From the NCBI GenBank assembly GCA_964418305.1, contig CAYQLX010000002.1, positions 6,064-44,957 on the forward strand: a DNA stretch of 38,894 nt. Direction: 5' to 3'. This document shows, in pieces, positions 3,337 to 25,327 of the stretch. The notes under the pieces were generated by a model. That model worked only from the letters and a program-made list of their open reading frames with translations. It was not told the DNA's origin and did not search any database. The stretch is from an uncultured Coriobacteriaceae bacterium (GTDB lineage Bacteria; Actinomycetota; Coriobacteriia; Coriobacteriales; QAMH01). Each line of letters starts with the position of its first letter. The stretch's first letter is position 1. Position numbers and translations under genes: made by a program.

Positions 3337-4893
3337 CTACGCGATTTCTTTCAGGCGCTGGCTGTCTCGCTTGCCGTTGGGAAGGCTTGGGATTGCCTCC
3401 AAAAAGATAACCTCGTCAGGAAGCGAGCCCTTCTCCAGCTTGTTTGCACCAAAGGCACGCAGCTCCTCGTAGGTGACCTTGCACCCACTCTCCAAAGTGG
3501 CAAAGAGACGCACGCGCTCACCAAGCTCTAGGTCGGGTTTGCCGATGACCGCGCAGTCCTTGATAGCCGGATGGGACAGATAGACTTTCTCCACCTGAGC
3601 GGGGTAGATGTTAAGGCCTCCCCTGACGATGATGTTTTTCAAGCGTCCCAACACATAAAGGCGCCCGTCGTCGTCAAGGCGTCCTACATCGCCCGTCCCA
3701 AACCACTCGCTCGTGTCATAGCTCGTCTTTTCATCATGATCGGTCGTGCGGATGTAGCGCATGAGCGACGGCGTCTTGGTCAAAATTTCCCCCGTAGCGG
3801 GATCTATTTTAAGCTCGGCACCTTGAATAGCTTTGCCCGAGCTTTCCAGACGCGTCTCCAAGGGGGCGTCGGGGGACTCAACCGTCAGTGTAGCTGCCGT
3901 CTCGGTCATGCCGTAAGACAGCACGATACGGCAGCCTGACAGCCTCTCGTACTCTGTCAGCACCGATTCACAGCATGCGTCGCCGGCAACCATGCACACA
4001 CGCGTAGCCGCGGCCTCGCGAGCTTCGGGGCCGGCCTCTCTCATAACAGCCAGCTCCCTGATAATCATCGTCGGCACGCAAAAACGCACAGCCGGCTTCA
4101 AAGAGCCGATCAACTGTAGAGAGGATTGAACGGAATACTTCCTAAGAACGGCCCACGTAGAACCGTGCAACAGGGCACTGACCATGGCCACAAACCCATA
4201 AACATGGAAAACAGGCACAGGCGCGTACAAGACGTCCTCCCCCGTCATACCCAAAGTCTGCGTAAGTCTAGTGGCGTTGTATGTAAACGACGACATAGCG
4301 TTGGCAATCGCCTTGGGAGCACCAGTCGAGCCGCTGGAGAAGAGCACCACGTCCTCATCAACCTTGCGCGAAAAAGAGGTCTCACCTGCGCTTGCAGAGG
4401 CTGCAGAGCGAGCCTTAGCAAGCGAGGTTGCATCCGACGCGTCGCCGTCGAGGTAGAGGAAAGGAACCTCGACGCCGTCACGGCGGGCAGATGCACACGA
4501 GGAAGCATCTTCGAACACAATCAGCGATGGCTTGAGGAATGCTGCATCATCTGCCACATGGTGATCTGTCAGAGAAGGAGCCCTCATGGCGATGTTCAAG
4601 CCCAAGTAATCGGCCGCGCTCAACAGGGCGGGGACCTCTGCCCTGTTGGGAACGTAGAACAGCACGGTGTCACCTTGCTTCAACCCGAGCTCTTCTCTAA
4701 GCCATGCGGCCACGGCCAATGCGAGCTCAAAGGCGTCTTTGTACGACATCGTGTCGCGCTCGCTTGCAACAACGGGCTTATCAGGGTGAGTAGCAGCGCC
4801 TTTTGCCAAAAGGGCGAGGAGAGAGGGCGCCTGGGCAGCAGGCGCATCAACGCCTGTCTGCTCTTCAAGCTGCTTGTCATATTGCGCTGTCAT
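3337..4893 (-). CDS. AMP-forming acyl-CoA synthetase/ligase (ANL superfamily; CaiC/FadK-like position)
   Basis: Motifs FSSGSTGAPKA (P-loop), YGMTET, GDVGRLDDDGRLYVLGRLKNIIVRGGLNIYP and a C-terminal NGKRD lysine. ATG at 4891-4893 follows GGGGGAGGGG. Confidence 0.9.
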   Translation of the reverse strand: MTAQYDKQLEEQTGVDAPAAQAPSLLALLAKGAATHPDKPVVASERDTMSYKDAFELALAVAAWLREELGLKQGDTVLFYVPNRAEVPALLSAADYLGLNIAMRAPSLTDHHVADDAAFLKPSLIVFEDASSCASARRDGVEVPFLYLDGDASDATSLAKARSAASASAGETSFSRKVDEDVVLFSSGSTGAPKAIANAMSSFTYNATRLTQTLGMTGEDVLYAPVPVFHVYGFVAMVSALLHGSTWAVLRKYSVQSSLQLIGSLKPAVRFCVPTMIIRELAVMREAGPEAREAAATRVCMVAGDACCESVLTEYERLSGCRIVLSYGMTETAATLTVESPDAPLETRLESSGKAIQGAELKIDPATGEILTKTPSLMRYIRTTDHDEKTSYDTSEWFGTGDVGRLDDDGRLYVLGRLKNIIVRGGLNIYPAQVEKVYLSHPAIKDCAVIGKPDLELGERVRLFATLESGCKVTYEELRAFGANKLEKGSLPDEVIFLEAIPSLPNGKRDSQRLKEIA

Positions 4894-4925
4894 AAACGTC
4901 CCCTCCCCCGTTTTGAATCTAAAAT

Positions 4926-6488
4926 CTAGGCCATCAAGGTATCGCCCAGGCCGTCCCAGTCCTCCTGGAACAAAGCCGCGTCCATGGTCTTAAGGTTGCT
5001 GCTAACCGCCGGCTTGAAGCCCATGTGAGCGATGACGTCGCGCTCTAGGTCGATACCGGGCGCGACCTCAGTCACGGTCACAACGCCGTCGATAAGCTCC
5101 AGCACGCAGCGCTCGGTGATGTACATGATCTTTTGGTCCTTGCCAGCACTCTTGCCGGCAAAGGTGATCTGCTGGACATGCTCGACAAACTTCTGAGCGC
5201 TGCCCTCCTCAACGATCTTGACCTGGCCGTCGACAATCTCCTCCTTGCACTTGGCCATGAAGGTGCCAGCAAAGACGACCTTTTTAGCCGACTGCGTAAT
5301 GTCGATAAAGCCACCGGGGCCGGAGAGGCGATTGCCAAACTTAGAGACGTTGACGTTGCCCTCCGTGTCAGCCTCTGCAAGACCAAGCACCGTGATATCC
5401 AAACCGCCGCCGTCGATGAGGTCGAACATGTCGTTGTGGACCATCACGCACTCGGGGTTGTAGTTAGACCCAAAGTTGGGAAGTGCCGCAGGCACACCGC
5501 CCACGCCGCCGGCCTCTGCGGTAAGCGTAATCTCGCTCGCGAGGCCTGCCTCGGCGACGATGGAGGCAACGTCAGCGGGGATGCCGACGCCAAAGTTAGC
5601 CACATCGCCTTGGCGAAGCTCCTGGGCGCAGCGGCGGCAGATGACCTTGCGCGGGCTCAAATCGAGCACGGGCAGCTGGTCGAGCGGCTTTCTGAGCTGA
5701 CCGCTAAAGGACGGCTCGTAGTAGACGCCCTCGGTCTGCCAGCAGCAGGACTTATCAGTTGCCTGGACAACGTAATCAACAACGATGCCAGGGATGCGCA
5801 CGTCCTTGGGATTAAGCGTGCCTTTTTGCGCCAGGTACTCCACCTGAACGATGACGATACCGCCGGAGTTGTGGGCGGCCATGGCCACGGCCAGACCCTC
5901 GTTTTGGACGCTTTCCTTCTCGAAGGTGATGTTGCCGTTTTCGTCGGCGGTAGTGCCGCGCAGCAAGGCAACGTCAAGCGGGAAGCTCTTGTAGAAGAGG
6001 TACTCCTCGCCCTGGAACTCGACGAGCTCGACAAGCTCGTCAGTGGTCGAGTCGTTCATCTTGCCGCCCTCTACGCGAGGATCAACAAAGGTACCCAAAC
6101 CAACCTTGGTAAGCAGGCCGGGGCGACCAGCTGCGATCTCACGCCAGAGGTTGACAATCACGCCCTGGGGCAGGCAATGGCACTGGATGTCACCGGACTG
6201 CACGAGCTTGTTGAGTGCGAAGGCAGAGCCGATGTGAGCACCGGACCACTTGGTCACAAGGCCGGGACCGGCCTCGCCCAAGATGGTGACGCCGCGCTCC
6301 TTCCAGTCGCCCATGGCGCAGCCCTGCTTGAGGTTGATGTTGCAGGGATGACCGGTCTCTTTGAAGCTGTCGCGCATGGCGCGCCCGACTTCCTCGGCCC
6401 AGCCAGAAAGACCCATGCCGGCCAAACCGACGGTAGCGCCGTCGGGGATGAGCTTAGCGGCCTCTGCCGCGGTGATGAACTTAGCCAT
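4926..6488 (-). CDS. Family I acyl-CoA:carboxylate CoA-transferase (YdiF / propionate CoA-transferase Pct-like)
   Basis: 520 aa, collinear by eye with remembered Clostridium propionicum Pct. Shared segments include AAEAAKLIPDG, GNITFEKE, GGIVIVQVE and ITERCV. The presumed catalytic Glu lies in TLTAEAGGVGGVP. Confidence 0.9.
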   Translation of the reverse strand: MAKFITAAEAAKLIPDGATVGLAGMGLSGWAEEVGRAMRDSFKETGHPCNINLKQGCAMGDWKERGVTILGEAGPGLVTKWSGAHIGSAFALNKLVQSGDIQCHCLPQGVIVNLWREIAAGRPGLLTKVGLGTFVDPRVEGGKMNDSTTDELVELVEFQGEEYLFYKSFPLDVALLRGTTADENGNITFEKESVQNEGLAVAMAAHNSGGIVIVQVEYLAQKGTLNPKDVRIPGIVVDYVVQATDKSCCWQTEGVYYEPSFSGQLRKPLDQLPVLDLSPRKVICRRCAQELRQGDVANFGVGIPADVASIVAEAGLASEITLTAEAGGVGGVPAALPNFGSNYNPECVMVHNDMFDLIDGGGLDITVLGLAEADTEGNVNVSKFGNRLSGPGGFIDITQSAKKVVFAGTFMAKCKEEIVDGQVKIVEEGSAQKFVEHVQQITFAGKSAGKDQKIMYITERCVLELIDGVVTVTEVAPGIDLERDVIAHMGFKPAVSSNLKTMDAALFQEDWDGLGDTLMA

Positions 6489-6539
6489 TGTTGCTCTCCT
6501 TAGAGGTGAAGTTTCGTTCGTTTCCTAGAAAGCCTGTGC

Positions 6540-6839
6540 CTAGCCGAAGCGGTACTCCACGCCCATGGTGGGCTGGGGGTTTTCCCACTTGGCGATGATG
6601 GTGTCGCCGCAAGCGATGCGGCAGGTGCCGCACTCGAGGCAACCGGCGTAGTCAAAGGTCTTCTCGCCGGTCTCTGCATCGAGCTTGTAAAGCGCCGCGG
6701 GGCACAGCATGATCAGCTTCTCGAACTCTGCGTCGGAAATGTTTTCCGAAAGCTCGATATGGGCGTTGTCCTCGTCTACCTCGTACTTGTTGACGGCCAG
6801 ATAGCCATCAACGTTTACCGTGTAATCGGTCCTGCTCAC
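6540..6839 (-). CDS. fixX: FixX/YdiT-type ferredoxin-like protein
   Basis: 99 aa with FDYAGCLECGTCRIAC and a C-terminal GVEYRFG, as in E. coli FixX. The GTG start overlaps the fixC stop (GTGA at 6836-6839). Confidence 0.9.
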   Translation of the reverse strand: MSRTDYTVNVDGYLAVNKYEVDEDNAHIELSENISDAEFEKLIMLCPAALYKLDAETGEKTFDYAGCLECGTCRIACGDTIIAKWENPQPTMGVEYRFG

Positions 6840-8131
6840 AGTGCCTTCACCGCCTTCATCGCGTCTTTGACTATGTTGAGCAAGCCCACCTTCTTGACGA
6901 TGGGCATAGCGTTTGCCTTGAGATGCTTGGCAGGGCTGCCGTCAACGATGAACATAGACTTCATGACATCGCTGGCCATCTCGGGGTAGCCGCTAAACAT
7001 ACGATCGAAGCCTTCCATGAACGCAGGGGCGTTTTGGTAAGTCTTAAGATCGCTCATGACGAAGGAACCCTCGAGCGCGCGCTCATAGCCAGCCAGGCCT
7101 GCCGCAGACGTATTGCCTGCGTCGATGGCCTTGGCGGCCTCGCGACCTGCGTGCATGCCAGCAGCCACCGCGTAGTCCATGCCGCGCACCTGGTAGCCCA
7201 AATTCAGGCACATCATGGCGTTGTCGCCTGCGAGCATAACGCCGTCGGCAACGAGCTTGGGCATCGCGTTGTAACCACCCTCAGGCACCATGTGACCGGA
7301 GTGCTCAACGACCTTGCCGCCCTTGATGAGCGGAGCAACAGCCGGGTGATTCTTGAGATCTTCAAGCATCTGATAGACAGGCGCCTTGCCGTGCTCTGCA
7401 ACGGCCTCGATGCCGGCGACAATGCCCAAAGAGATGCTCTCCTTGTTGGTGTACATGAAGCCGCCGCCAAAGCAACCCTTGGTGCAGTCGCCTGCAAACA
7501 GCCAAGCGGCGCCCTCGTCGTCAGAGCCAGCGAGCACGCGGTCGGTGATAGTTGCGGCAGGAAGCTCGATGACCTCCTTAACGCCAACAGCCACGGATTC
7601 AGGGCTGGGACGCTTAGCGCCGGTGGCCTCTTTGGCCAGAAGCGAGTTGACGCCATCGCACAAAATGACAACGTCGGCGGTGATCTCATCCTCGCCGGCC
7701 TTGACGCCTACGACCTTGCCTGCGTCGTCTTTGACCAAAGACTCGACGGGAATGCCGTAGATGAACTCGGCACCTGCGTCTTCTGCCTTAGAGGCGAGCC
7801 ATTGATCAAACGGAGCGCGCAAAACGACGTAGGAATCGCGGCCCTCCTGCTTCATGTCCTCGGCTGAGTAATCAATCGTGAGGTTGGCATCGCCCGTCAT
7901 GAGGCTGATGCGCTCATGCGTGACCTTGCGCTCCAGCGGAGCTTCGCTCTCAAAGTCGGGGAATACCGCCTTGAGGGCATGCGAGTAAATACGGCCGCCG
8001 GTCATGTTCTTTGCACCGGCAAAGTTGCCGCGCTCGATGACTAGGACTTCCTTGCCGGCCTTTGCCAGCTCGTATGCCGCAACGCTGCCTGCGCAGCCAG
8101 CGCCCACGACTATAGCCTGAAAATCTGACAT
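6836..8131 (-). CDS. fixC: FixC/YdiS-type FAD-dependent oxidoreductase (ETF:quinone oxidoreductase-like)
   Basis: N-terminal dinucleotide fold AIVVGAGCAGSVAAYELAKAGKEVLVIERGNFAGAKNMTGGRIY. Collinear with remembered E. coli FixC through MLEDLKNHPAVAPLIKGGK. RBS AAGGGAGAG. Confidence 0.9.
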   Translation of the reverse strand: MSDFQAIVVGAGCAGSVAAYELAKAGKEVLVIERGNFAGAKNMTGGRIYSHALKAVFPDFESEAPLERKVTHERISLMTGDANLTIDYSAEDMKQEGRDSYVVLRAPFDQWLASKAEDAGAEFIYGIPVESLVKDDAGKVVGVKAGEDEITADVVILCDGVNSLLAKEATGAKRPSPESVAVGVKEVIELPAATITDRVLAGSDDEGAAWLFAGDCTKGCFGGGFMYTNKESISLGIVAGIEAVAEHGKAPVYQMLEDLKNHPAVAPLIKGGKVVEHSGHMVPEGGYNAMPKLVADGVMLAGDNAMMCLNLGYQVRGMDYAVAAGMHAGREAAKAIDAGNTSAAGLAGYERALEGSFVMSDLKTYQNAPAFMEGFDRMFSGYPEMASDVMKSMFIVDGSPAKHLKANAMPIVKKVGLLNIVKDAMKAVKAL

Positions 8132-8174
8132 TTATCTCTCCCTTCTATACATAGAAGTCTCTCTACCCAAATGG

Positions 8175-8207
8175 GGGCATCGCATCGTGGGGAGCGATAC
8201 GATGCCC
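8175..8207. repeat. Imperfect hairpin sharing the 11-mer GCATCGTGGGG with the 127-219 elements
   Basis: GGGCATCG-C-ATCG [TGGGGAG] CGAT-A-CGATGCCC. The 11-mer at 8182-8192 is identical to 185-195, and its near-complement is at 151-160. Confidence 0.45.
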
Positions 8208-8269
8208 TGAAAATGCCTGACGCGAAAAAGGAGGGGATTGAACGTCAAGCCGTGGTAAATCAAGTGGTC

Positions 8270-8298
8270 GCAAGACCGGAAAGGTATTCCGGTCTTGC
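8270..8298 (-). terminator. 12-bp hairpin 8 nt after the CoA-transferase stop (partial terminator or processing site)
   Basis: GCAAGACCGGAA [AGGTA] TTCCGGTCTTGC. On the minus strand it is followed by GACCACTTGATTT, a poor U-tract. Confidence 0.45.
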
Positions 8299-8306
8299 GT
8301 TGAGAA

Positions 8307-9518
8307 CTAGATGATCTTGTTCTCCTTGAGCTGTGCCATCTCCTCGGCAGAAAGGCCCAGCAAGCCACCGTAGATCTCCTCGTTGTTGCCGCCGAGCTTG
8401 GGCGAGCACTCGTAGTCGATGACGTTTTCGGACATACGGGCTGCAAAGCCAGGAACCTTGATCTTGCCGCGGTAGTCGTGCTCTACCTCAACGACGATGC
8501 CGCTTTCTGTGTACTGCGGATCGCTTGCAAAGTCGCTGATGTCGAGCATGGCGCCAGCGGGGACATCTGCCTTGGCGAGGATGTCCATGGCCTCTTGCTT
8601 GGTGTGCTGAGAAGTCCACTCGGTGATGATTGCGTTAAGCGCATCGCGGTTCTCATAGCGGGTGTGCGGAGTAGCCATGCGCGGGTCGTCCAGAAGCTCT
8701 TCATGGCCGATGGCCTTGCACAGATAGCTCCACTGCTTGGAACCTGGGTTACGCGACGTGTAGATATGCACGTAGTCGTTGGGACCAAAGGGCTTGCAGG
8801 GATAGGTATCGGACGGAGCCACATCCTCCAGGGGCATGCCGTTGCCAACGCGGCGGGGCGGCTTTCCCGTGTTGTAGTAGGGCTCCCAGCCAGAACGACC
8901 AAGGCCGATGATGAAGTCCTGCATATCGCACTCGATTTGCTGGCCAACGCCTTCCTTGTCGCGCTGATACAACGCGGCGGTGATGGCGAGCGCACACATG
9001 AGACCGGTGCCGGAATCGGCAACGCTCACGCCAGCCTTGATGGGCTGATCGGGCAGACCGGTAGCAGAGACGAAGCCGCCGGCATGGGTTGCGATCGGGT
9101 CAAACGCGGGGTACTCGGCGTAAGGCCCTTGAGAGTAGAAGCCCTTGATGGATGCGTAGACAATCTTGGGGTTGACCTTCTTGCACTCCTCATAGGAAAG
9201 GCCGAGCCTTGCCATGGAGCCGGGGCCCATGTTTTCGACGATGACGTCACACTTCTCCAGAAGCTTGAGCATCAGGTCATGACCCTCGGGGGTCTTCATG
9301 TTGCAGGTGAGACCCTTCTTGTTCATGTTCATGATGATGAAGCCGTAGCTGTCATGCTCGGGATCCAGACCGGAGTAACGGCCAAGCTCGCCGCGACCCG
9401 GACGCTCCACCTTCAAGACCTCTGCGCCGAGCCAAGCAAGCGTCTCGGTGCAAACGGTACCTGCCTCGAACTGCGTAAGGTCCAAGATCCTTGCGCCGCT
9501 CAGTGCTCCCTTACCCAT
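8307..9518 (-). CDS. Family III CoA-transferase (CaiB/BaiF/Frc/FldA/HadA family)
   Basis: 403 aa. LDLTQFEAGTVCTETLAWLGAEVLKVERPG, KTPEGHDLMLKLLEKCDVIVENMGPG and the catalytic-Asp context GVSVADSGTGLM align by eye with remembered formyl-CoA transferase. Confidence 0.9.
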   Translation of the reverse strand: MGKGALSGARILDLTQFEAGTVCTETLAWLGAEVLKVERPGRGELGRYSGLDPEHDSYGFIIMNMNKKGLTCNMKTPEGHDLMLKLLEKCDVIVENMGPGSMARLGLSYEECKKVNPKIVYASIKGFYSQGPYAEYPAFDPIATHAGGFVSATGLPDQPIKAGVSVADSGTGLMCALAITAALYQRDKEGVGQQIECDMQDFIIGLGRSGWEPYYNTGKPPRRVGNGMPLEDVAPSDTYPCKPFGPNDYVHIYTSRNPGSKQWSYLCKAIGHEELLDDPRMATPHTRYENRDALNAIITEWTSQHTKQEAMDILAKADVPAGAMLDISDFASDPQYTESGIVVEVEHDYRGKIKVPGFAARMSENVIDYECSPKLGGNNEEIYGGLLGLSAEEMAQLKENKII

Positions 9519-9551
9519 ATCATTACCTCCTAGTTTCCAAAAACTCGTTGC

Positions 9552-10904
9552 TTATTTGTCTGCGTTGGGGATAACGCGGTTCTCGATGAAGTCCTCGACC
9601 ATGGCGAGCATGTTGTCGCGGCTGAGCTTGCGCGGGTCAACAGGGTCGGCCACAAAGCGCAGCACCGGCACGCCAGCTTGCTCAAGCGCCTTTTCGATGA
9701 AGTAAGAGCCCTCGATGTTTTGCATGCAGTTGTCGGGGACCATATAGACAACGCCGTCGATGCCGTTGGTCTGGGCTTCTTTGACAAACCACGCTGCATT
9801 CCAGGGCGGCATGTGCAAGGCGTCCTGCATGATGATCTCGCGCGCGGCCAAGCAGCGCAGGGGGTCTTCCTCGACGTGGTAGCGGATGTAGGTATCAGCG
9901 CCCATAGCCAGATACATAGACCACACGAAGGCAGCGCCGTACTTCTTCTCGAAGTTCTGATAGAACTCAAAGTCATGCCACAAGCCGCGGCCAATCCACA
10001 TGAGGCGATACTTCTCGTTGGGGACGGCGTAATCCTTGGCGTCGACGAGAGCCTTGATCTCCATGTAGAGGCTCTTGGCGTGGTCAACTGCCCACTGCGT
10101 ACCGCGCTGCCACTGAGCCTGCATAACGGCGTTGATGGTGTCGACGACGGTAACAGGAGCGGGGCGGGAAACAGCGATGAGGTCGCGGGTTTTCTTGTAC
10201 CACTCCTCCTGCTCGTTGATCAGGTTCATGACCTCGATGAACTTCTGCTCGTCGAACATATGGCCCGTCTCCTGCTCCAAGAAGCGGATTAGCTCCTTGA
10301 AGTCGTCAACGAACTCGTCCAGACGATCGCTGTCCAGAAGCTCTTCCCAATCGTACGGGGCAAGCTCCCACCAGTTGAGCGGGGTCGTGCGGGTCTGCGT
10401 GACCTCCATCGTAAAGAGCTTGGCGCCGTAGTTTTTGCTAAACAGCTCGAAGATCTTGTTCTGGCAATCGCAGCAAAGACGCGTGATAGCGATGGTGGGC
10501 TTGGGAAGACCGCCCCAGGGACCCAGCGGCTTGCCGTCTTCTCCGATGGCGTGGTCATCGGGGTCCATGCTCTCTGCCAGAGGTGTAGCGCAGTACGTGC
10601 ACAGGTCATCGCGGTAACCCGCTGCACGCAGCAGGTCAAAGTACTTCTTGTTCATGCGCTTTGCGGCGCAGATAGCACTCCACCACTGGTTCACGACGAA
10701 GGGGATATCCATCGCGCGCAAAATCTCGATGGGCACATCGGCGTTGATGTAAGCAAACGGGCTACCTGTTCCCTCTACCTGACGCTTGAGGTCCTGGAAC
10801 CACTGCTTCTGATACGCGCTCGCAACTGCAGTAGCCTTGAGTCGCTTGACTGCCTTGCTCTTGCTGCCGCTTTGAGGGGCAGCACCCTGCTTCTTCTCTT
10901 CCAT
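9552..10904 (-). CDS. 2-hydroxyacyl-CoA dehydratase / benzoyl-CoA reductase B/C family protein (HGD-D fold), large subunit
   Basis: 450 aa. N-terminal AYINADVPIEILRAMDIPFVV, typical of HgdA/HadB/FldB-type proteins, plus several Cys clusters (LCTYCATP, RLCCDCQ). The ATG overlaps the upstream stop (TAATG at 10904). Confidence 0.75.
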   Translation of the reverse strand: MEEKKQGAAPQSGSKSKAVKRLKATAVASAYQKQWFQDLKRQVEGTGSPFAYINADVPIEILRAMDIPFVVNQWWSAICAAKRMNKKYFDLLRAAGYRDDLCTYCATPLAESMDPDDHAIGEDGKPLGPWGGLPKPTIAITRLCCDCQNKIFELFSKNYGAKLFTMEVTQTRTTPLNWWELAPYDWEELLDSDRLDEFVDDFKELIRFLEQETGHMFDEQKFIEVMNLINEQEEWYKKTRDLIAVSRPAPVTVVDTINAVMQAQWQRGTQWAVDHAKSLYMEIKALVDAKDYAVPNEKYRLMWIGRGLWHDFEFYQNFEKKYGAAFVWSMYLAMGADTYIRYHVEEDPLRCLAAREIIMQDALHMPPWNAAWFVKEAQTNGIDGVVYMVPDNCMQNIEGSYFIEKALEQAGVPVLRFVADPVDPRKLSRDNMLAMVEDFIENRVIPNADK

Positions 10905-12070
10905 TACGCACCAACCTTAAGACTGCCGACAAAGCTGTCGAGCTCTGCGTTCAAATTGTCGTTTTTGGAAACAGGCCACTGCTGGCGGAAGAACGCCACC
11001 GTCTTCACGCCTGCCTCCTCGAGGGCTTTCTTCTGCTCGGGGTAATCCCAAGATGCAGACTCGTCATGCTCATGCAAATAGAAGATGACGCCGTCTGCTG
11101 CGCAATCGGCAGCTGCTGTAGAAAGGCTTTCAACCCTATCTGCCACAGGAGCCTTGCACGTGCTTATCTGACGCAGCATATAGCGGTCGACGATGGCGCG
11201 GATGGGGTCGATATCGGTACGCGTGTCACGATCAAATGCCCTGTCGCCCCAATTGTGATCCTCACCTACGACAACGCACCCGCAGGCCTCGATTGCATCG
11301 TAAAGATCCAAGGACTCCTGCGCGGTACCGGTCACAAAGACGCGCGGGCCCTCGATAGCAGGCCAGTTCTTGGCATCTGCGGCAACCTGGCGTACGAGCT
11401 CGGCATGGGTGGCGCGGTCCATGAAGAACGAAGAGCCGGTAATCACAGCGGCCTCTGCTCCGTTGATGCGCGGGGTCTCGCCGTGACGCAGCGCGGCGAC
11501 CTGACGCAGTGCAGCGCGGTCCTCGTTGCAGATTTCTGCAGCCTGCTTAATCTCCTCGTCGGTGATGGGGCGGGCAATCCACTTCTCTACCGTTTCGCGG
11601 AAGCGTGCCACGACCTTCTTGTTCTCGTCCTGATAAAGACGATGACGCGACCACAGCCAGTCGACAAACTCGACGGGCGGGAGGTTCATCTGCCTCTCGC
11701 TGCGGCGCATCTCACGCAGGTACAGCCACATGCGCAGCTCGAAGTCGCTGGTGTGGGAGACGGTCAGATAATCGAACAGCCCTGCATAGGTACCGTCGAC
11801 GATCTTCTCAAACGTTGCGTACGTGCAAGGCTCAAAGGCCTTCTCGAGATAGATTTCTGTGAACTTGAAGTCCTTATTGGGATCGGCATAAACGCGAACC
11901 GGCAACATGCCAGCTGCAATCACAATCTCATCGGGAACGTCAGCACCCATCTCGCCAACAACCTTACCGCCCTGCTCTTTGAACTCGAGCAGATACTTCT
12001 CGCGGTTTTGGTAGATGTCGTACAGAGTTGAAAACGCAGAACTCTGCCTAGCACACTCTCGTATTGTCAT
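10904..12070 (-). CDS. 2-hydroxyacyl-CoA dehydratase family protein (HGD-D fold), small subunit
   Basis: Start trimmed to ATG 12068-12070 (MTIRECARQ), preceded by GAAGGAGAG. 388 aa with VVGEMGADVPDEIVIAAGMLPVRVY and C-terminal DGVIFYLHEHDES, typical of the family. Confidence 0.75.
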   Translation of the reverse strand: MTIRECARQSSAFSTLYDIYQNREKYLLEFKEQGGKVVGEMGADVPDEIVIAAGMLPVRVYADPNKDFKFTEIYLEKAFEPCTYATFEKIVDGTYAGLFDYLTVSHTSDFELRMWLYLREMRRSERQMNLPPVEFVDWLWSRHRLYQDENKKVVARFRETVEKWIARPITDEEIKQAAEICNEDRAALRQVAALRHGETPRINGAEAAVITGSSFFMDRATHAELVRQVAADAKNWPAIEGPRVFVTGTAQESLDLYDAIEACGCVVVGEDHNWGDRAFDRDTRTDIDPIRAIVDRYMLRQISTCKAPVADRVESLSTAAADCAADGVIFYLHEHDESASWDYPEQKKALEEAGVKTVAFFRQQWPVSKNDNLNAELDSFVGSLKVGA

Positions 12071-12251
12071 GTAGGACTCTCCTTCGTTAACGGCACGCCG
12101 TTGCTTTTGCCAAGGACGATACCCATGCATATGCCCACCCTTAGGCACGAAAGACGAGGCTCGTCTTTTGCATATCCTCATAGTAAGGAGCAGCCATGAC
12201 CTGCGGAATAAACACAAACTCCACGGGGTGCGGACAGGTTGTTTATATGTT

Positions 12252-12305
12252 CTAAAACAGATAAAACAATGCCAGCGCACCCTCTCTCAAAGGCACGCTG
12301 GCATT
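12252..12305 (-). terminator. Rho-independent terminator of the LysR gene
   Basis: 10-bp stem AATGCCAGCG/CGCTGGCATT (12268-12305), followed on the minus strand by GTTTTATCTGTTTT. Confidence 0.7.
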
Positions 12306-12335
12306 GTCAAAAACGCATAAAGGAGGCGGTTACTT

Positions 12336-13238
12336 TTAGAGGTCTGCCGGGGCGTAAGGAGAAGACGCCACCCTTTCTCTTATGCACTCTGCAAGCTCAT
12401 GATCGACCTCACGATGAACAGTCTGGAGCACGATGTGGGCATCGAGCGGCTCGTAGTTTGCGGGCGTGCAGTAGCATTCCTTGGACCACGGGCTGCGATC
12501 GACGTCTAACTGTCGTATGAAGGTCACCTCTTTGCCGGGGCGTGACAACAATCTGGCGATGTAGTCCTTATCTACCTCGCGCACGCGCAGCTCAAAGCCA
12601 AGGCGCTGGCAATGAGTCTGCAGGATCTTCACCCAAGCAAAGCTGCGGTACTCGGTTATGACCGTAAGGTCGCGCAAATCTGCAAAAGAAAAGCTGCCTC
12701 GCTTTGCAATGTCGCTTTGGCAGTTGACCAGGGGCACAAAGCGCAAAGCACATATCTCTTCTTGAGGAAGCTCGCGCAAGTCATCTATCTCGGATGAGAG
12801 GAACCTGTAGTCGTAACCGCCGTCCATGAAAATCTTTGAGAGGCGCTCTTCGTTTTCCCTGAGCATCAGGGCTTTGACGCAGTCATCGGGATGGGAGAGG
12901 TTGTAATCCTCGACGCCCTGCAAAACCACATCGCCAAACATAGAGTCACGGCCGATAAGGTAGCGCGCGTGCTCCGCGCGTTTAAGATCGCTCAGATAAG
13001 CGTAGACTTCGTCTTCTGCCTGGACCATCTGCTTAAAAGACGGCTGTAGATTCTTTGCCTGCTCGGTCAATATCATGCCTTGGGCGCTTCTTACAAAAAG
13101 ACGTACTCCGAGCTTTGTCTCCAGCCTTTTAAGGGAGCGGGAAAGCCCCTGAGGGGAGATATACAAAGCGGCGGCGGCTTGGTTCACGCTCCCGTGCTCG
13201 CAAATAGCAAGAAAATAACGGGCTTCGTCTGTGTTCAT
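12336..13238 (-). CDS. LysR family transcriptional regulator
   Basis: Start trimmed to ATG 13236-13238 (MNTDEARYFLAICEHGSVNQAAAALYISPQGLSRSLKRLE, a canonical LysR wHTH). GGAGG lies 11 nt upstream. Confidence 0.85.
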   Translation of the reverse strand: MNTDEARYFLAICEHGSVNQAAAALYISPQGLSRSLKRLETKLGVRLFVRSAQGMILTEQAKNLQPSFKQMVQAEDEVYAYLSDLKRAEHARYLIGRDSMFGDVVLQGVEDYNLSHPDDCVKALMLRENEERLSKIFMDGGYDYRFLSSEIDDLRELPQEEICALRFVPLVNCQSDIAKRGSFSFADLRDLTVITEYRSFAWVKILQTHCQRLGFELRVREVDKDYIARLLSRPGKEVTFIRQLDVDRSPWSKECYCTPANYEPLDAHIVLQTVHREVDHELAECIRERVASSPYAPADL

Positions 13239-13307
13239 AAAAACGCGAACCTCCAATGCGCGCATTGCTCGAATACGCTCAAGTATAAAGCCTTTGCGGC
13301 CCGACAC

Positions 13308-13376: not shown

Positions 13377-14309
13377 CTAAGCAGCGGCAGCCTCAGACTC
13401 ACCGCCGTCATTTTGCTTAGATTGCATCAGCTCGGAAAGCGCAATGGCAACAAGGATGATGACAATGCCCAAGATTTTGAAGAACGTCGTGCTCTCACCG
13501 CACAGAATAACGCCAGCGATAACAGCAACGGGAAGCTCAGATGACGTGAGGATACCCACGATGCCGCCGGGCAGGTTATTAGTCGCAACAGAGATGCAGA
13601 CGCAGGGGATAATCGTCATGACAAGACCCATGATGATGCCGCCGGGCACGAGGTCAACGATGTTACCTGTCGCAGTGCCTGCGGCAGGAAGCATGATGAC
13701 CACAAAGATCAGCGCACCAAACGACATGAAGAAGGTCCTCGTGACAGAAGGCACCTCCACGGCAATGCGGCCGTTAAAGCAGATAAAGATTGCGTAGCAA
13801 ACAGCGCAGACCATCGCAAAGAAAACACCCAAGGGGTCCATAGTCGTCTGACCGGACATGATGTCATCAAACAAGCCGCTGCCAAAGAACGTACCGACGA
13901 TGATGGCAATGGCCGAAATAATGACCCAGATATTGGGCACCTTGCGGTCCAGTAGTGCCTGGATAACCACGGTGATCCACACATACTGGAACTGCATGGC
14001 CACGGCTTGGTTAACAGAAATCATATCGATCGCAATGTAGTACGTGTAAGACGATATAGCAGAGATAACACCCAAAATAGCGAGCTGGATGATGTCCTTG
14101 CGGGTCATCTTGCAGCGATAACGCACCAAGACCAAGACGCCCAAGATAATAGTAGAAGCCAAAAGCTGGGCGACGATGATATGCCCAACCTCAAAACCAC
14201 CGGTTTTGACCAATTGACTGATTGCGCCACCGACGCCGTAAGCCGCGCCAGCTGCCAGACCCATAACGGCAGCAAAAGCACGTCCACCGTTTGTGTTTGT
14301 GGTACTCAT
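13377..14309 (-). CDS. DMT-superfamily (EamA/multidrug-efflux-like) membrane transporter
   Basis: Start trimmed to ATG 14307-14309 (MSTTNTNGG) after GGAAGG. 310 aa with about 10 hydrophobic helices. Confidence 0.7.
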   Translation of the reverse strand: MSTTNTNGGRAFAAVMGLAAGAAYGVGGAISQLVKTGGFEVGHIIVAQLLASTIILGVLVLVRYRCKMTRKDIIQLAILGVISAISSYTYYIAIDMISVNQAVAMQFQYVWITVVIQALLDRKVPNIWVIISAIAIIVGTFFGSGLFDDIMSGQTTMDPLGVFFAMVCAVCYAIFICFNGRIAVEVPSVTRTFFMSFGALIFVVIMLPAAGTATGNIVDLVPGGIIMGLVMTIIPCVCISVATNNLPGGIVGILTSSELPVAVIAGVILCGESTTFFKILGIVIILVAIALSELMQSKQNDGGESEAAAA

Positions 14310-14373
14310 AAAAACCTTCCAAAAACTCATTAACCGATAATTACTATATTGAATCCAGAAGCAAGACAAATCC

Positions 14374-14456
14374 GCAGCACGCCAGCTTGTGCTGCTTCCG
14401 TACCCAAAAACGCGATAAGGAGCTGTGCCAGGGTCATCACCACCTGGCGCAGCTCC
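14374..14456 (-). terminator. Two tandem hairpins after esterase A
   Basis: A 14-bp imperfect stem GGAGCTGTGCCAGG/CCTGGCGCAGCTCC lies at 14419-14456. A 7-bp stem GCAGCAC/GTGCTGC lies at 14374-14395, followed on the minus strand by GGATTTGTCTTGCTT. Confidence 0.5.
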
Positions 14457-14473
14457 ATTAAGACAGACAACAG

Positions 14474-15973
14474 TTAGTTGAACCTGCGGGCGATATCCAA
14501 ATCCTCGGGGCGGACCTCGCCAGAAGCGCGCCACTCACTGCCCATGTACATCGTGCAGCGGTCATTGTCGTACGTAGGCCACTCAACGCCAAGAGCCTCA
14601 CCGTTGGGGTCATGCTTGACGATGAAGTTATGCCAAACCTCGCGCAACTTGCGGCCGTATTCCGGATCCGGCTTGTCGCCCAGAAGCGTCTCGCCAGACT
14701 TGAGCTCGAGGTAGAGATTGCCGTCGAGCTTGTCGGCAACGTAGGGAATCTCAAAGCAATGCTGAGCACGGAGCGTACAGCCCTCGGGTTTCACGTCAAT
14801 GTAGTAAACCCAAACGTTGCTGCCGCCCTTGGCCACCTCTTCAGATGCTTTTGCCTGGGCCGCACGGATGAGGAAGTCGTTGAACATATCCTCCATCGTC
14901 TCATGTGCGTCGCGCGCAGGGTCGGTTGCCTTGTATGCCTCGATGTCTGCATCGGTGAGCGTGGGGAACATCTCTTTGAGAGCATCGGCTATCTCATCGG
15001 GAGACATGTTCATCACATTGGGGGCAAACTCGCCAGAAACAGTGCCACTCAAGAGCGCTATGTGCTTGCAAGCGCCGCTCTTCCACTCATCCTCCAGCTT
15101 GCTCGTAAGATCAGTGTCATCGCAAACAGGCCCGAACAGTGCCATGTTGCCAGGCTTCATCTTGGCTTCGAAGCCGTACTTGACAACATCTTCAATGGGC
15201 ATATCCAAGACGTCTTTGAGCGTCTTGCAACCAGAAAGCTCGTAGAAGTCATCAAAACCGTGCTTGACGGACTCGGCATCCGCACGCAGGACCTCATCAG
15301 AAGGCGCGGTGCTCTCGGCGATAACGCCCTTAATCATGCCGCGAACCTCGGGCATGCCCATCAGCACGTAAACAGAGTACGAACCCGCGCTCTGGCCGCC
15401 GATGGTGATTTGCTCGGGGTCGCCGCCAAAGGCCTCGATGTTCTCATAAACCCATTTGATGGCCGCAGCCTGATCATGCATCTGAAGGTTGATGCTGCCG
15501 GCGTAATCCTCGGCGCCTTCAAAGCGGGAAAGATCCATGGAGCCCACGGGCCCAATGCGGTACTCAATGTTCACATAGACAACATCAGGGTAATGCTCAA
15601 CGAACTTATCGCCGCAGTAGACGCCACCAAAGCAATCGGTGCGGCAGCTGCCGGTGATGTAGCTTCCGCCGTGGATGAAGATGTAGACGGGCTTCTTGCC
15701 CTCTGTACCGCTAGTCCACACGTTGAGGTACAGGCAGTCTTCGCTCAAAGGCGGCTTGCCGTCGGGGTATTCCTCAACGGGAACAGCCTGATAGCATGCG
15801 GGGTTGTCGTTAAGAGCCAGATACCTCTCGTCGGAGGGCTCCAAGGGCTGCGCGCGCTTCCAGCGATGCACGGGCTTTGCATAGCGGATGCCAAGATACT
15901 CCTGGACGCCGCTGTCTAGAAGCTTGCCAACGTAGACACCGGTTTTTGCTGTTGCAGTCACCAAGTTTTCCAT
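14474..15973 (-). CDS. Type-B carboxylesterase (para-nitrobenzyl esterase/cholinesterase fold), paralogue A
   Basis: EDCLYLNVW, oxyanion IHGGSY, nucleophile elbow GGQSAGS (Ser codon 15389-15391), acid SGEF, His in RAQHCFEIPYV. No signal peptide. RBS GGGAG. Confidence 0.9.
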   Translation of the reverse strand: MENLVTATAKTGVYVGKLLDSGVQEYLGIRYAKPVHRWKRAQPLEPSDERYLALNDNPACYQAVPVEEYPDGKPPLSEDCLYLNVWTSGTEGKKPVYIFIHGGSYITGSCRTDCFGGVYCGDKFVEHYPDVVYVNIEYRIGPVGSMDLSRFEGAEDYAGSINLQMHDQAAAIKWVYENIEAFGGDPEQITIGGQSAGSYSVYVLMGMPEVRGMIKGVIAESTAPSDEVLRADAESVKHGFDDFYELSGCKTLKDVLDMPIEDVVKYGFEAKMKPGNMALFGPVCDDTDLTSKLEDEWKSGACKHIALLSGTVSGEFAPNVMNMSPDEIADALKEMFPTLTDADIEAYKATDPARDAHETMEDMFNDFLIRAAQAKASEEVAKGGSNVWVYYIDVKPEGCTLRAQHCFEIPYVADKLDGNLYLELKSGETLLGDKPDPEYGRKLREVWHNFIVKHDPNGEALGVEWPTYDNDRCTMYMGSEWRASGEVRPEDLDIARRFN

Positions 15974-16226
15974 TTTTGACTCCCATCAAAAAATGCAATC
16001 GCGCTATCGCCAGAGCTTCTGACGACAGACGTCCTGTCAACATAACCCAGTTTCCTTGATGGTCGTGCTAAACAGAATGTCGGAGAACACCAACACTTAG
16101 CACGAAGATTGTGCAAAACGACCAAATCATCTGAAAAAGATATTAAGCGCTTTACCCCTTGTCTAGGGGACGCGTAACGCACGCCAGCCATAAAAAGCCC
16201 GCTTGCGCTATGTAATCCATGCACAC

Positions 16227-16259
16227 GCAAAGCGGCCGGTGGAAACACCGGCCGCTTGC
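16227..16259 (-). terminator. Strong GAAA-tetraloop hairpin 31 nt after MFS-A stop
   Basis: GCAAAGCGGCCGGTG [GAAA] CACCGGCCGCTTGC, 14 bp with one bulge. There is no clear U-tract. Confidence 0.5.
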
Positions 16260-16290
16260 TGAGAGAGAAAACCCTAAAGAGGTTTGGGCA

Positions 16291-17604
16291 CTAAGCCTGC
16301 TCTGCTTCCTCGTTCTTGGCATCTTTGTTCATCACGCGGATGAACTCGATGTTATTGCCCTTGAGCTTGAGAAGGATCAGCGAGAGCACGACGGCAACTG
16401 CAACAGCGATAGCGCAGACCATGAACATTCCGGAATAACCGCTGTCGCCGCCGAGCACTGCCAGCCAAGGCGAGATAGCCGCGGCCAGAAGGATGGAGGT
16501 GTAACCGAGCGAGTAGTTAAAGGCAAAGTGCTCGCTGCCAAAGAAGTCACCGATAAGAGACGGATGCATACCGGCAAAGCCACCCAGGCAGAAGCAGTAC
16601 ACGAACGTGCAAACGGCAAACCAGACGATGCCGTGACCCTCGCAGAAGACGAGACCCATAATCGCGATAAAGCCGATGATAAGGATTCCGACAACAACCT
16701 TGAGACGGCCCAGGTGGTCGCCAATGGGGCCAATGATGCAGGACAAGAAGCCCATGACGGAAACGCCGGAGACCAAGAACGCCGCAGTCATATCAGAGAT
16801 ACCGAGGATATCGACGGCGATGTAGGCAAGCTGGTAGGACAAAAGCATGTAACCGGAGCTTGCGCACAGCGGGATGAGGTAGAGCAGATAGAACGCAGGA
16901 TCCTTGAGCATGGCCTTCCAGTCCTTCTGAACGAAGTTGGGATTAGCGATGACCTTGCTCCTCCTGCCCTTACGCTCGCCGGCCTCGGCGTCAGAAGCGA
17001 TGTTCTTGGGCATGTAATCGGCAGGATAATCCGGGAAGAAGATAACCATGACGAGAATCAGGGCTGCCAGAATGATGCCGTTGATGACGAACATCATGTC
17101 AAAGCCCACGCTCTCGATGAGCATCTGGGTCTGAGGGGCCAAGATCATGCCGCCAGCGCTGATACCGCATGCGCACAAGCCAACCGCAAAGCCGCGGTAA
17201 TCGGGGAACATGCGCTCGACGGTGGTCATAACAGAGATATAGATGACCGCCTGCTGCCAACCAATGAAGACAACCTGGGCAATGGCAAAACCAAGGATGC
17301 TGTTGTTGAAGCCGCAGATCAACATACCGATGAGAAGCATCACTGCGCAACTGATGATCGACTTTGTAACGCCAAACTTATCGACAAACTTGCCACCAAT
17401 GATGGTGAACACCGCACCGGCAATCGTAAGACCTGAGTAAATCGTTGCCATGCCTGCTTCCGTGGCACCACGAATGGTGATCATAGGATCGACGAGCAAG
17501 CTCCATGTCATGCCCAAAGCAGCCGTGGAAATGATGATCATACTGATGACCAGTGCAATCCACCTGTATCTGTCGGGGTTTTCGGGTCTGAACTGAAGAT
17601 GCAT
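16291..17604 (-). CDS. MFS transporter, oxalate/formate antiporter (OFA)-like family, paralogue A
   Basis: 437 aa, 12 TM-like segments with a central charged loop. ATG 17602-17604 follows AGGAGGG. Alignable full-length with 23771-25072. Confidence 0.85.
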   Translation of the reverse strand: MHLQFRPENPDRYRWIALVISMIIISTAALGMTWSLLVDPMITIRGATEAGMATIYSGLTIAGAVFTIIGGKFVDKFGVTKSIISCAVMLLIGMLICGFNNSILGFAIAQVVFIGWQQAVIYISVMTTVERMFPDYRGFAVGLCACGISAGGMILAPQTQMLIESVGFDMMFVINGIILAALILVMVIFFPDYPADYMPKNIASDAEAGERKGRRSKVIANPNFVQKDWKAMLKDPAFYLLYLIPLCASSGYMLLSYQLAYIAVDILGISDMTAAFLVSGVSVMGFLSCIIGPIGDHLGRLKVVVGILIIGFIAIMGLVFCEGHGIVWFAVCTFVYCFCLGGFAGMHPSLIGDFFGSEHFAFNYSLGYTSILLAAAISPWLAVLGGDSGYSGMFMVCAIAVAVAVVLSLILLKLKGNNIEFIRVMNKDAKNEEAEQA

Positions 17605-17626
17605 AAGAACCCTCCTGTTGCCTTAC

Positions 17627-17696
17627 TTTGAATGCGCTCCTCTTGCACATCCGCTTGTGGCTAATACACCCGGAATTTTGAATGCGCCGCTCGTGC
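17627..17696. promoter_or_regulatory. Direct repeat TTTGAATGCGC(N)CTC(N)TGC x2, spaced 50 nt, in the MFS-A / PucR-A divergent region
   Basis: 17627-17646 is TTTGAATGCGCTCCTCTTGC and 17677-17696 is TTTGAATGCGCCGCTCGTGC (17/20 identical, the first 11 nt perfect). Confidence 0.4.
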
Positions 17697-17967
17697 TGCG
17701 AAATAGCACCACTTACCTAAAGTTTGGCGATTTTTTGTGCAAAATTTACAAGACGATAACAAAAGCACACTTGTACGCTCCTATATGTTCAGACGGCAAA
17801 GCCAAGGCCCAATCGCACAAAACAAACGTGTTGAGCGGGGCACAAAATAGCAAAGCATCAATGGCAGCCGCAAGGGCGTAAGTCAGCCCTTGCAACAGAC
17901 AGAAGAAGTTCATAAACTCACAGGCAAAATTCGCTGTCATGCGAGCACAAGAAAACAGGGAGGCGCG

Positions 17968-19197: not shown

Positions 19198-19221
19198 ACG
19201 GCTATCGCTAAAAACGCGTGG

Positions 19222-20442: not shown

Positions 20443-20490
20443 AGCTGCTCCCTTCGCCTTTGCCTGCTGGCCGTCAAATCAAAGATAGAT

Positions 20491-22065: not shown

Positions 22066-22104
22066 GAGAAAACCTCCGATTCATTTATCCGTGCTTAAAG
22101 CAAG

Positions 22105-22138
22105 CAGGCCCGATGAGAGCTTTGCTTCATCGGGCCTG
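22105..22138 (-). terminator. 12-bp hairpin between esterase B and the C45-like gene
   Basis: CAGGCCCGATGA [10 nt] TCATCGGGCCTG, followed on the minus strand by CTTGCTTTAAGC. Confidence 0.45.
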
Positions 22139-22144
22139 TGATTG

Positions 22145-23650: not shown

Positions 23651-23667
23651 TTCTAGCTTCCCTTTCC

Positions 23668-23709
23668 AAAAAATTGGCTGGAGCCCTTGTGCAAAAACTC
23701 CAGCCAATT
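23668..23709 (-). terminator. Strong rho-independent terminator between MFS-B and esterase B
   Basis: 12-bp stem AATTGGCTGGAG/CTCCAGCCAATT with a 14-nt loop. On the minus strand it runs straight into TTTTTT, then the esterase-B RBS. Confidence 0.75.
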
Positions 23710-23770
23710 AATTAAACACTTTTATTGGCGAGCTGTGACCAAGCAGTCACCGCCTCTTTAAGGCAATGCT

Positions 23771-25072: not shown

Positions 25073-25105
25073 TTCAATACCTCCTAAACAATTTCCCTTC
25101 TTGCG

Positions 25106-25127
25106 CATCGACATACATATCGATGTT
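25106..25127. promoter_or_regulatory. Palindrome CATCGA-N8-TCGATG upstream of MFS-B, containing TATCGATGTT
   Basis: CATCGACATACATATCGATGTT lies 34-55 nt upstream of ATG 25072. The 10-mer TATCGATGTT recurs at 27224-27233. Confidence 0.35.
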
Positions 25128-25271
25128 TCATTTACATTAATCAGCCCGCAGACGGTCGGTTATGTTGGTAAGCAACAGAAAAAGGGTCGTTTATTGTTTG
25201 CTAGCGCCATTAACAAACAGGCGAACCCAACATCGCTTTTTGCTTGCTAAAAACCAGTCAGGAGCGCTAAC

Positions 25272-25302: not shown

Positions 25303-25327
25303 TTTAACCAGCGTAGTGCCGCTACCC

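Follow-up and report, generated by a model that had tools for sequence, protein, structure and literature searches.

A 38,894-nt stretch of DNA from an uncultured Coriobacteriaceae bacterium (contig CAYQLX010000002.1, assembly GCA_964418305.1; here called the window) carries three adjacent genes for two proteins of the HGD-D fold, an alpha-like and a beta-like subunit, and for a family III CoA-transferase. We consider it rather probable that this trio belongs to a widespread, uncharacterised branch of the benzoyl-CoA reductase (BCR)/2-hydroxyacyl-CoA dehydratase (HAD) superfamily that acts independently of an activase and performs a redox-neutral conversion of an acyl-CoA. HGD-D-fold enzymes are classically known for radical or low-potential chemistry that is driven by ATP and sensitive to oxygen. 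Here, the activase appears to be missing because the branch uses none: orthologues without cluster ligands exist, the relay or storage cluster of the beta subunit has disappeared throughout the branch, the catalytic acid/base pair is replaced, and no reductant gene accompanies the trio. These four points suggest that the chemistry shared by the branch is most likely polar and redox-neutral. The wider proposition is one on which we are evenly divided: that these proteins form an unrecognised BCR/HAD enzyme class with a cluster-less beta subunit, a dispensable alpha cluster and redox-neutral, oxygen-tolerant, activase-free acyl-CoA chemistry, set in a catabolic module common to gut anaerobes and soil aerobes. 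The module meant consists of a PGA_cap/MslH-like protein, the family III CoA-transferase, the alpha-beta enzyme, a transporter and often a CocE-type hydrolase.

Open reading frames (ORFs) of the window and of related loci were scanned with Pfam and NCBIfam models, the equivalog cutoffs being those curated by NCBIfam. The beta-like gene starts at an ATG with GAAGGAGAG just 5′ of it and overlaps the alpha-like gene in GCGTAATGG, where one base is common to the TAA stop and the ATG start (TAATG). This overlap, together with PF06050 matches in both proteins (Table 1), confirmed the claim of an earlier, sequence-only reading that two translationally coupled ORFs of the HGD-D fold are present. The same reading had placed a family III CoA-transferase 33 nt after the alpha stop codon, with VADSGTG as the catalytic-Asp context, and was right in this as well. 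An AGGAGG site precedes the start codon, PF02515 was covered over 1-365 of 366 positions, and the Asp of VADSGTG aligned with the catalytic Asp in LGDSNTG of E. coli YfdW, the closest relative (YfdW/Frc, 233 bits). The Frc loop GGGGQ is absent from the window protein, where the region reads DVAPSDTY, and the equivalog cutoffs were not reached (TIGR03253, 319.5 bits vs 504; NF003809, 336 bits vs 442). Judged by these alignments, the CoA-transferase is a member of family III and not an Frc orthologue.

To map the distribution of the trio, one genome per GTDB species was scanned. Relatives occurred in 345 species, and the best 80 of these 345 loci were fetched with 10-kb flanks; together with the window they make up the 81 gut-type sequences referred to below. 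The 80 loci derive mainly from Clostridia (Lachnospiraceae, Oscillospiraceae, Intestinimonas, Murimonas and Lacrimispora) and Coriobacteriia of guts and rumens, and identical proteins were found in chicken-gut Coriobacteriia near Candidatus Aphodovivens avistercoris. The order beta, alpha, CoA-transferase on one strand was kept in 72 of the 80 species. Among the exceptions, the transferase is encoded on the opposite strand (L035) or 2.5 kb downstream (L083), while five of the six loci without a transferase stop at a contig edge. This constant pairing points to an acyl-CoA substrate with recycling of the CoA, as by FldA and HadA. No characterised member of the branch came up in full-text searches of the literature.

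The absence of an activase ATPase from every frame of the 39-kb window, as reported in the sequence-only reading, was borne out by two approaches. Pfam scans of all large ORFs in the window gave no BcrAD_BadFG (PF01869-type) match. Furthermore, a phmmer search with HgdC (sequence identical to PDB 1HUX) against all stop-to-stop translations of 40 aa or more in the six frames returned nothing better than E = 4. None of the 80 other species had an HgdC homologue (E < 1e-3) within 10 kb of the trio, and the same probe detected no activase near the trio in three aerobic loci inspected. As a positive control, we fetched 15 metagenome loci with one canonical alpha subunit (marker positions: P-E, four Cys and His); the contigs were mostly short, and seven of the 15 loci contained HgdC-like genes at E <= 1e-48. 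The absent activase is a trait of the branch and not an accident of this window. Moreover, the conserved neighbourhood of the trio contained no ferredoxin, flavodoxin or other reductant gene.

The beta-like subunit has BzdN (E 2.9e-28) and HadC (E 1.5e-19) as its closest PDB matches, and its AlphaFold model (pLDDT 92) matched BzdN (8s02_B) with a Foldseek TM of 0.89 and HadC with 0.87. BzdN holds an [8Fe-9S] cluster on Cys36/73/100/263/293/327 (PMC11971306). In the alignment, none of these six positions was occupied by Cys in the beta-like protein, and the same was true across its family. The HadC/BzdN motifs tmCtytPEE, fpafaC and kfCDP read emGadvPDE, afEpc and hEHDES, respectively, and not one Cys was conserved among 59 orthologues or among 32 database relatives. 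With neither ligand Cys nor any conserved Cys, the beta-like subunit is unable to hold a cluster in the known way; on the basis of the alignments, it is probably a non-catalytic scaffold partner free of Fe-S clusters. Its faster evolution is apparent from the identity to Lachnospiraceae homologues (~53% vs ~70% for alpha). The top NCBIfam match was the double-cubane protein model NF040772, at 117 bits (50 bits for the alpha-like subunit) against a cutoff of 350. A single Cys in the motif ELGCDVPDE, at or adjoining the position of BzdN Cys36, was kept by 25 of the 59 orthologues (~40%); residue 43 of the window protein is Ala at this site. Going by its position, this lone Cys looks like a relic of a lost distal sub-cluster.

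For the alpha-like subunit, the closest PDB matches were MbdO, HadB and BzdO. Its AlphaFold model (pLDDT 81) gave Foldseek TM values of 0.75-0.85 to 9g87_A and 3o3o_A and of 0.76-0.85 to HadB. In BzdO, a [4Fe-4S]-OH2 cluster is bound by Cys95/128/380, Glu65 and His131 being the acid/base residues, and HAD enzymes have a [4Fe-4S] cluster in alpha and a [4Fe-5S] cluster in beta (PMC11971306). In 2-hydroxyacyl-CoA dehydratases, three Cys hold the alpha cluster and leave one iron site open. Residues C102, C145 and C393 of the alpha-like protein aligned with the three BzdO ligands and with the ligand Cys of MbdO and HadB, and are thus candidate cluster ligands. Three further Cys (C79, C105 and C147) are present, and all six were invariant among 29 diverse family members. 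Among the cluster-bearing gut-type sequences, the triad, C79 and C105 were invariant (62/62), C147 being kept in 61. The acid/base pair is different. BzdO Glu65 corresponds to Asn72/Gln73, of which Gln73 (VVNQWW) was invariant in 81 sequences, whereas canonical representatives read P-E; His131 is replaced by Gln148, a nearly invariant residue three positions after the second ligand. No gene of the module is better conserved than alpha (identity of 64-89% among gut taxa and of 41-47% to aerobes), which probably encodes the catalytic subunit. Both HGD-D subunits remained far below the equivalog cutoffs: the models for HadB/C, BzdN/O, BcrB/C and the double-cubane protein gave 31-117 bits vs cutoffs of 350-750, including HadB/HadC (84.7 bits vs 750 and 98.4 bits vs 700) and the benzoyl-CoA reductase models TIGR03190 and TIGR03191 (113 and 57 bits vs cutoffs near 450). 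A second, non-canonical cluster or double cubane on C79, C105 and C147 was considered and rejected as the principal explanation. These residues do not lie at the distal-subcluster positions of BzdN or of the double-cubane cluster protein (DCCP), the loss of C105 accompanies that of the ligands, and canonical members, too, have C79 and C105.

The alpha cluster ligands, too, have been lost in parts of the family. Nineteen of the 81 gut-type alphas form a sub-branch of 64-67% identity that carries C102N, C105D, C145G and C393D together, with unchanged flanking motifs. Among its members are Clostridium sp. OM02-18AC, Lacrimispora indolis SR3, Intestinimonas and a Blautia. In the two cluster-free loci laid out in detail (L077 and L082), the operon layout was that of the cluster-bearing locus L016. 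C79 was invariant even in this sub-branch, C147 was found in 68 of the 81 sequences, and most aerobic homologues have Val in place of C79. An exhaustive search of representatives revealed a wider branch with 40-50% identity to the window alpha, recognisable by the motifs NADxPxE, VVNQWW, PWGGLP, MWIGRGLW and FVWSMYLA. Its members, many of them beta-alpha fusions of 750-845 aa, have no cluster Cys. The hosts belong to the Actinomycetota and Alphaproteobacteria and comprise Streptomyces, Amycolatopsis, Pseudonocardia, Saccharothrix, Microbacterium, Caulobacter, Brevundimonas and Sphingomonas, all of them known as aerobes. The aerobic alpha homologues (41-47% identity to the window alpha) contain one to four Cys per HGD-D protein. 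All three aerobic loci inspected had operons of PGA_cap, CoA_transf_3, HGD-D and HGD-D (or the fusion) alongside an amino-acid ABC, MFS or TonB transporter, with a CocE/NonD Peptidase_S15 hydrolase in two of the three. The cluster site that is retained in the window alpha and selected in most anaerobic lineages is read as a structural or Lewis-acid element.

The activase-independent reading can be cast as a working mechanism. A carboxylic acid would be imported, perhaps after being freed from an ester or amide by neighbouring hydrolases, and the PGA_cap/MslH-like protein may invert its configuration. The Frc/YfdW-like family III transferase would load the acid onto CoA, and the alpha-beta heterodimer would then convert the acyl-CoA, with alpha alone being catalytic and beta acting as a cluster-less scaffold. 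The conversion would be a redox-neutral polar reaction, most likely water elimination/addition or isomerisation, in a pocket lined by the invariant Asp56, Asn72, Gln73, Arg306, Trp309 and Asp311 and the nearly invariant Gln148. Finally, the transferase would hand the CoA on to the next substrate molecule. The three-Cys [4Fe-4S] site of alpha, if occupied, would be a structural or Lewis-acid element; as the cluster would not accept an ATP-energised electron, no activase would be needed. Genes for an acyl-CoA dehydrogenase (ACAD) and the electron-transferring flavoprotein (ETF) subunits EtfBA directly follow the trio in two loci (L029 and L038) and precede it in L041, while in L024 and L032 an ACAD gene follows and the contig ends. 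Such occasional neighbours fit a product of the enoyl-CoA type, and we therefore infer that water elimination, or a related lyase or isomerase reaction, is favoured. In this strain the product would probably go to the nearby ACAD/ETF/FixCX reductase system.

A number of considerations weigh against this proposal. Substrate and reaction type are inferred for an uncharacterised branch. The conservation of the Cys residues shows selection for a metal site, whose role could still be redox. Cluster-free and cluster-bearing forms may differ in the reaction they catalyse. An activase could be encoded elsewhere in this genome, the negative results covering the window and, for the 80 other species, 10 kb around the trio. 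Activators are catalytic and promiscuous, and one activase such as HgdC can serve several dehydratases. Also, the activase has been proposed to dock over the alpha-type (BzdO) cluster (PMC11971306), so loss of the beta cluster alone does not exclude activation. The link between PGA_cap and an epimerase, for its part, rests on a remote match (52-106 bits vs 700).

Several of these points would suit an ordinary Fld/Had-type ketyl-radical 2-hydroxyacyl-CoA dehydratase, with an activator encoded elsewhere that delivers one electron straight into the alpha [4Fe-4S] cluster. We regard this alternative as unlikely, though it is the best of those considered. The proposed docking site and the promiscuity of activators would allow for an unlinked activase, but such a gene lay within 10 kb of the trio in none of the 80 species nor in the window, compared with 7/15 canonical control loci. 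The three canonical Cys are indeed retained in the window alpha, yet orthologues of ~65% identity, with the same layout where inspected, lack the cluster ligands, the aerobes are cluster-free, the beta cluster is absent, and the Glu of P-E is replaced by Gln. Pairing with a family III CoA-transferase, as in fld and had operons, and the ACAD-EtfBA genes that this window and several species have in the vicinity of the trio speak for a canonical system, which the NCBIfam scores (85-98 bits vs cutoffs of 700-750) do not. The sequence-only reading, which took the trio for the core of a had/fld/hgd/lcd operon, is thus upheld for the fold, the operon anatomy and the missing activase, but not for the beta subunit, which has no Fe-S ligands, nor for the alpha subunit, which has neither the catalytic Glu nor the His. 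That the trio is simply a standard had/fld core has to be given up in view of equivalog scores far below cutoff and of close orthologues and aerobes without cluster Cys.

It is more doubtful still that the alpha cluster and C79, C105 and C147 (C-x-x-C, and C-x-C beside a ligand Cys) carry out thiol/disulfide or sulfur chemistry in the manner of ferredoxin:thioredoxin reductase or a desulfidase. The six Cys invariant in 29 diverse members, two extra Cys next to ligand Cys, and the persistence of C79 in the cluster-free gut sub-branch would be explained in this way. However, C105 disappears with the ligands, C147 is variable (68/81), C79 is Val in most aerobic homologues, both C79 and C105 are shared with canonical members, and no partner redox protein is conserved nearby.

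As the sequence-only reading had noted, the direction of transcription continues downstream of the trio across a structured spacer of 175 nt into fixC and fixX, and this arrangement was verified (Table 1). The spacer has a minimum free energy of -73.2 kcal/mol (z = -7.44; none of 200 shuffles was as stable) and contains two perfect 13-bp hairpins, GCAAGACCGGAA...UUCCGGUCUUGC and GGGCAUCGUAUCG...CGAUGCGAUGCCC, the first of which starts 8 nt past the CoA-transferase stop codon. A consensus terminator scan did not list it because a U-tract is missing. Rfam yielded no match to any part of the window; the hairpins therefore do not correspond to a known riboswitch. The spacer is likely a terminator or attenuator that parts the trio from fixCX; two possibilities for the element are a factor-independent terminator of the actinobacterial type and a repeat element. 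FixC, like FixX, was seen next to the trio only in the window's own strain (FixC in 0/80 other species), and even where alpha is 86-89% identical, the relatives carry an acyl-CoA ligase gene in its place.

FixCX with a YdiF-type CoA-transferase and an acyl-CoA ligase is the usual company of ACAD/ETF enoyl-CoA reductases of the ydi/cai-fix type. In the window, EtfB and EtfA are encoded ~22 kb from fixCX between two acyl-CoA dehydrogenase genes. Within this block, the first dehydrogenase (442 aa) is extended by ~60 residues at its N-terminus relative to the second (398 aa), and both score best with PRK12341 and CaiA-type models, below cutoff. FixCX, the YdiF-like and FadK-like proteins and the ACAD-EtfA-EtfB-ACAD block probably constitute an enoyl-CoA reductase system that acts downstream of the trio and does not activate it. 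These genes resemble the E. coli ydiQRST-ydiF-ydiO-fadK and caiTABCDE/fixABCX loci: counterparts of FixC/YdiS, FixX/YdiT, YdiF, FadK/CaiC, YdiO/CaiA and EtfBA are all present in the window. The loci differ in that the genes are strain-specific neighbours outside the conserved trio here, with fixCX ~22 kb away from etfBA. The sequence-only reading had offered the Fix-type system as a source of low-potential electrons, which these findings do not support. Although FixC and FixX lie on the same strand 175 nt downstream and FixABCX bifurcates electrons in Azotobacter, it is highly improbable that FixCX stands in for the activase, with the distant EtfBA in the role of FixAB, and feeds alpha-beta, as fixC adjoins the trio in none of the 80 others, the relatives of 86-89% alpha identity among them, the units are set apart by two strong hairpins, the YdiF-/FadK-type company and the YdiO/CaiA-like dehydrogenases flanking EtfBA 20 kb away form a classic enoyl-CoA reductase set, and the cluster-free orthologues require no electron.

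Compared with known systems, the trio shares with HadBC, FldBC, HgdAB and LcdAB the HGD-D heterodimer, the coupled genes, the three-Cys [4Fe-4S] motif of alpha and the pairing with a CoA-recycling family III CoA-transferase (HadA/FldA), as well as, in some species, adjoining ACAD and EtfBA genes. It differs from them by the lack of a linked activator in the window or 83 other loci, by a beta subunit without ligands, by Gln for the PE Glu, and by equivalog scores of about one tenth of the cutoffs. Many orthologues and the inspected aerobes are also devoid of the alpha cluster, and the genes run beta, alpha, transferase, accompanied by those for PGA_cap and transporters. BzdNO and MbdNO (PDB 8s02 and 9g87) were the best sequence and structure matches (TM 0.89 for beta with BzdN; 0.75 for alpha with MbdO/BzdO). 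In contrast to the trio, they have the six cluster Cys of BzdN, Glu65 and His131 of BzdO (both Gln here) and a BzdPQ-type ATPase, and nothing in the gene context here is a sign of aromatic ring reduction. DCCP and DCCP-R (PDB 6eno and 7yyl) have the same fold, and the DCCP model was the top NCBIfam match of beta, albeit at 117 bits vs 350; the homodimer, the six Cys ligands per subunit and the dedicated ATPase of DCCP have no equivalent here.

It is rather probable that the trio represents an activase-independent, progressively cluster-free BCR/HAD branch inside a conserved catabolic module. If so, the fold would have been reused for polar chemistry after loss of the activase, of the beta cluster and, in many lineages, of the alpha cluster. 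An evolutionary series DCCP > BzdNO > HAD with stepwise cluster loss has been described (PMC11971306), which the branch would extend to a cluster-free end-point. Members of the branch are annotated everywhere as '2-hydroxyacyl-CoA dehydratase'. When this annotation is read as amino-acid or lactate fermentation, the pathway predictions are probably wrong, which would affect, for example, the production of phenylpropionate, indolepropionate or propionate predicted from gut metagenomes. The module is probably a marker of an undescribed pathway for the breakdown of an acid from plants or the diet. Since cluster-free aerobic members exist, biochemical study should be straightforward.

The recurrent neighbours of the trio give hints about the module. 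PGA_cap was the commonest enzyme neighbour: 28 of the 80 species encode it no more than 10 kb from the trio, usually directly upstream and in one or two copies. The only characterised NCBIfam model matched by the PGA_cap proteins was that of MslH, a Ca(II)-dependent epimerase of a peptide C-terminal residue (PMC10406935, PMC8179263). Trio-linked PGA_cap proteins share its calcineurin-like family; they gave 52-106 bits, and the window protein 52 bits, vs the NF038314 cutoff of 700. The match is a lead only; MslH acts on a lasso-peptide precursor, and the substrate here is probably a small acid. The window PGA_cap is 31-34% identical to those of the aerobic operons, and the CocE/NonD hydrolase of the window is 28-30% identical to the S15 proteins of L091 (Caulobacter) and L092 (Amycolatopsis). 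Other recurrent neighbours were a divergent PucR regulator, a CitMHS/MatC or Opp-type transporter and DUF6198/YczE or MatE. Subsets of loci contained glycyl-radical enzymes, family I CoA-transferases or ACAD-EtfBA.

Table 1 Features of the window (window positions; (-), minus strand)
Feature	Position	Strand	Basis or remark
Acyl-CoA ligase	3337-4893	(-)	Pfam and NCBIfam scans; closes downstream block 3337-8131
Fused family I CoA-transferase, YdiF/FadX type	4926-6488	(-)	Pfam and NCBIfam scans
FixX ferredoxin-like protein	6540-6839	(-)	100 bits vs cutoff 166
FixC/YdiS-type flavoprotein	6836-8131	(-)	NF007450, 500 bits vs cutoff 466
Structured spacer, 175 nt	8132-8306	(-)	two 13-bp hairpins
Family III CoA-transferase, 403 aa	8307-9518	(-)	PF02515 CoA_transf_3, E 6.5e-100
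Alpha-like HGD-D subunit, 450 aa	9552-10904	(-)	PF06050, E 9e-49
Beta-like HGD-D subunit, 388 aa	10904-12070	(-)	PF06050, E 4e-47
LysR-family regulator	12336-13307	(-)	PF00126 HTH_1, E 2.4e-19; weak LysR_substrate match; directly upstream of trio on the same strand
COesterase-family carboxylesterase	14474-15973		
PucR regulator	17890-19197		
PGA_cap (CapA/MslH-like calcineurin-fold) protein	19222-20442	(-)	PF09587, E 4e-42
C45 autoproteolytic acyltransferase/hydrolase	20491-22065		
COesterase-family carboxylesterase	22145-23707		
CocE/NonD-family (Peptidase_S15) hydrolase	25328-27205	(-)	PF02129 and PF08530; TIGR00976, 205 bits vs cutoff 66
PucR regulator	27378-28571		
ACAD-EtfA-EtfB-ACAD block (YdiO/CaiA-like)	28650-32915	(-)	Pfam and NCBIfam scans

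The region 13377-28571 of the window is rich in hydrolases and transporters. Besides the genes listed in Table 1, it holds two MFS transporters and one EamA transporter, a pattern that suggests catabolism of an ester or amide conjugate. In L091 (12581-19874), the fused beta-alpha gene is followed by genes for DUF3237, a TonB-dependent receptor, a tannase-family esterase, an alpha/beta hydrolase and a cytochrome P450. The operon of L092 adjoins genes for an AMP-binding ligase, an ECH_1 enoyl-CoA hydratase, an aldehyde dehydrogenase and a PaaX-like regulator, a set which, by composition only, resembles fcs/ech/vdh of ferulate catabolism. As far as gene content can tell, the two contexts hint at plant phenolic esters. 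Going by context only (esterases, CitMHS, Opp and amino-acid transporters, Iso_dh), conceivable substrates include aryl-lactates from rosmarinic-type esters, tartrate or hydroxy-dicarboxylates, quinate or shikimate, and D-amino or hydroxy acids. Glycyl-radical enzymes, one or two per locus, are encoded upstream of or near the trio in Blautia and Lachnospiraceae (L007, L008, L030 and L033; ~0.2-8.8 kb) and also in L012, L015 and L069; in the former four, they stand directly upstream of the trio beside a radical-SAM activase, a MatC/CitMHS transporter and a URO-D/MtaA-like protein. These glycyl-radical enzymes fell below every NCBIfam equivalog cutoff, a generic PFL2-3 model being the best match. 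Likewise, NCBIfam scans of the URO-D-like, PGA_cap and DUF6198/YczE proteins and of the alpha/beta and CocE-type hydrolases gave only sub-threshold or generic matches as clues to the substrate.

A LysR gene was found 5′ of the trio also in related Coriobacteriia loci, and on identical metagenome contigs it is annotated as 300 aa. Directly 3′ of the LysR gene of the window lies a terminator-like hairpin of 20 bp with a T-rich tail (12265-12308, minus strand). Because of this hairpin, LysR and the trio are probably separate transcripts despite the shared strand. A sigma-70 promoter scan of the window found no promoter. Long antisense ORFs of 320-456 aa lie opposite real genes on the plus strand (5133-6503, 8478-9533, 11066-12031 and 14612-15919); the one that was checked, 16219-17436, had no Pfam match. 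GC-rich DNA commonly contains such antisense ORFs; in several related loci they led a simple gene caller, which takes the longest ORF, astray.

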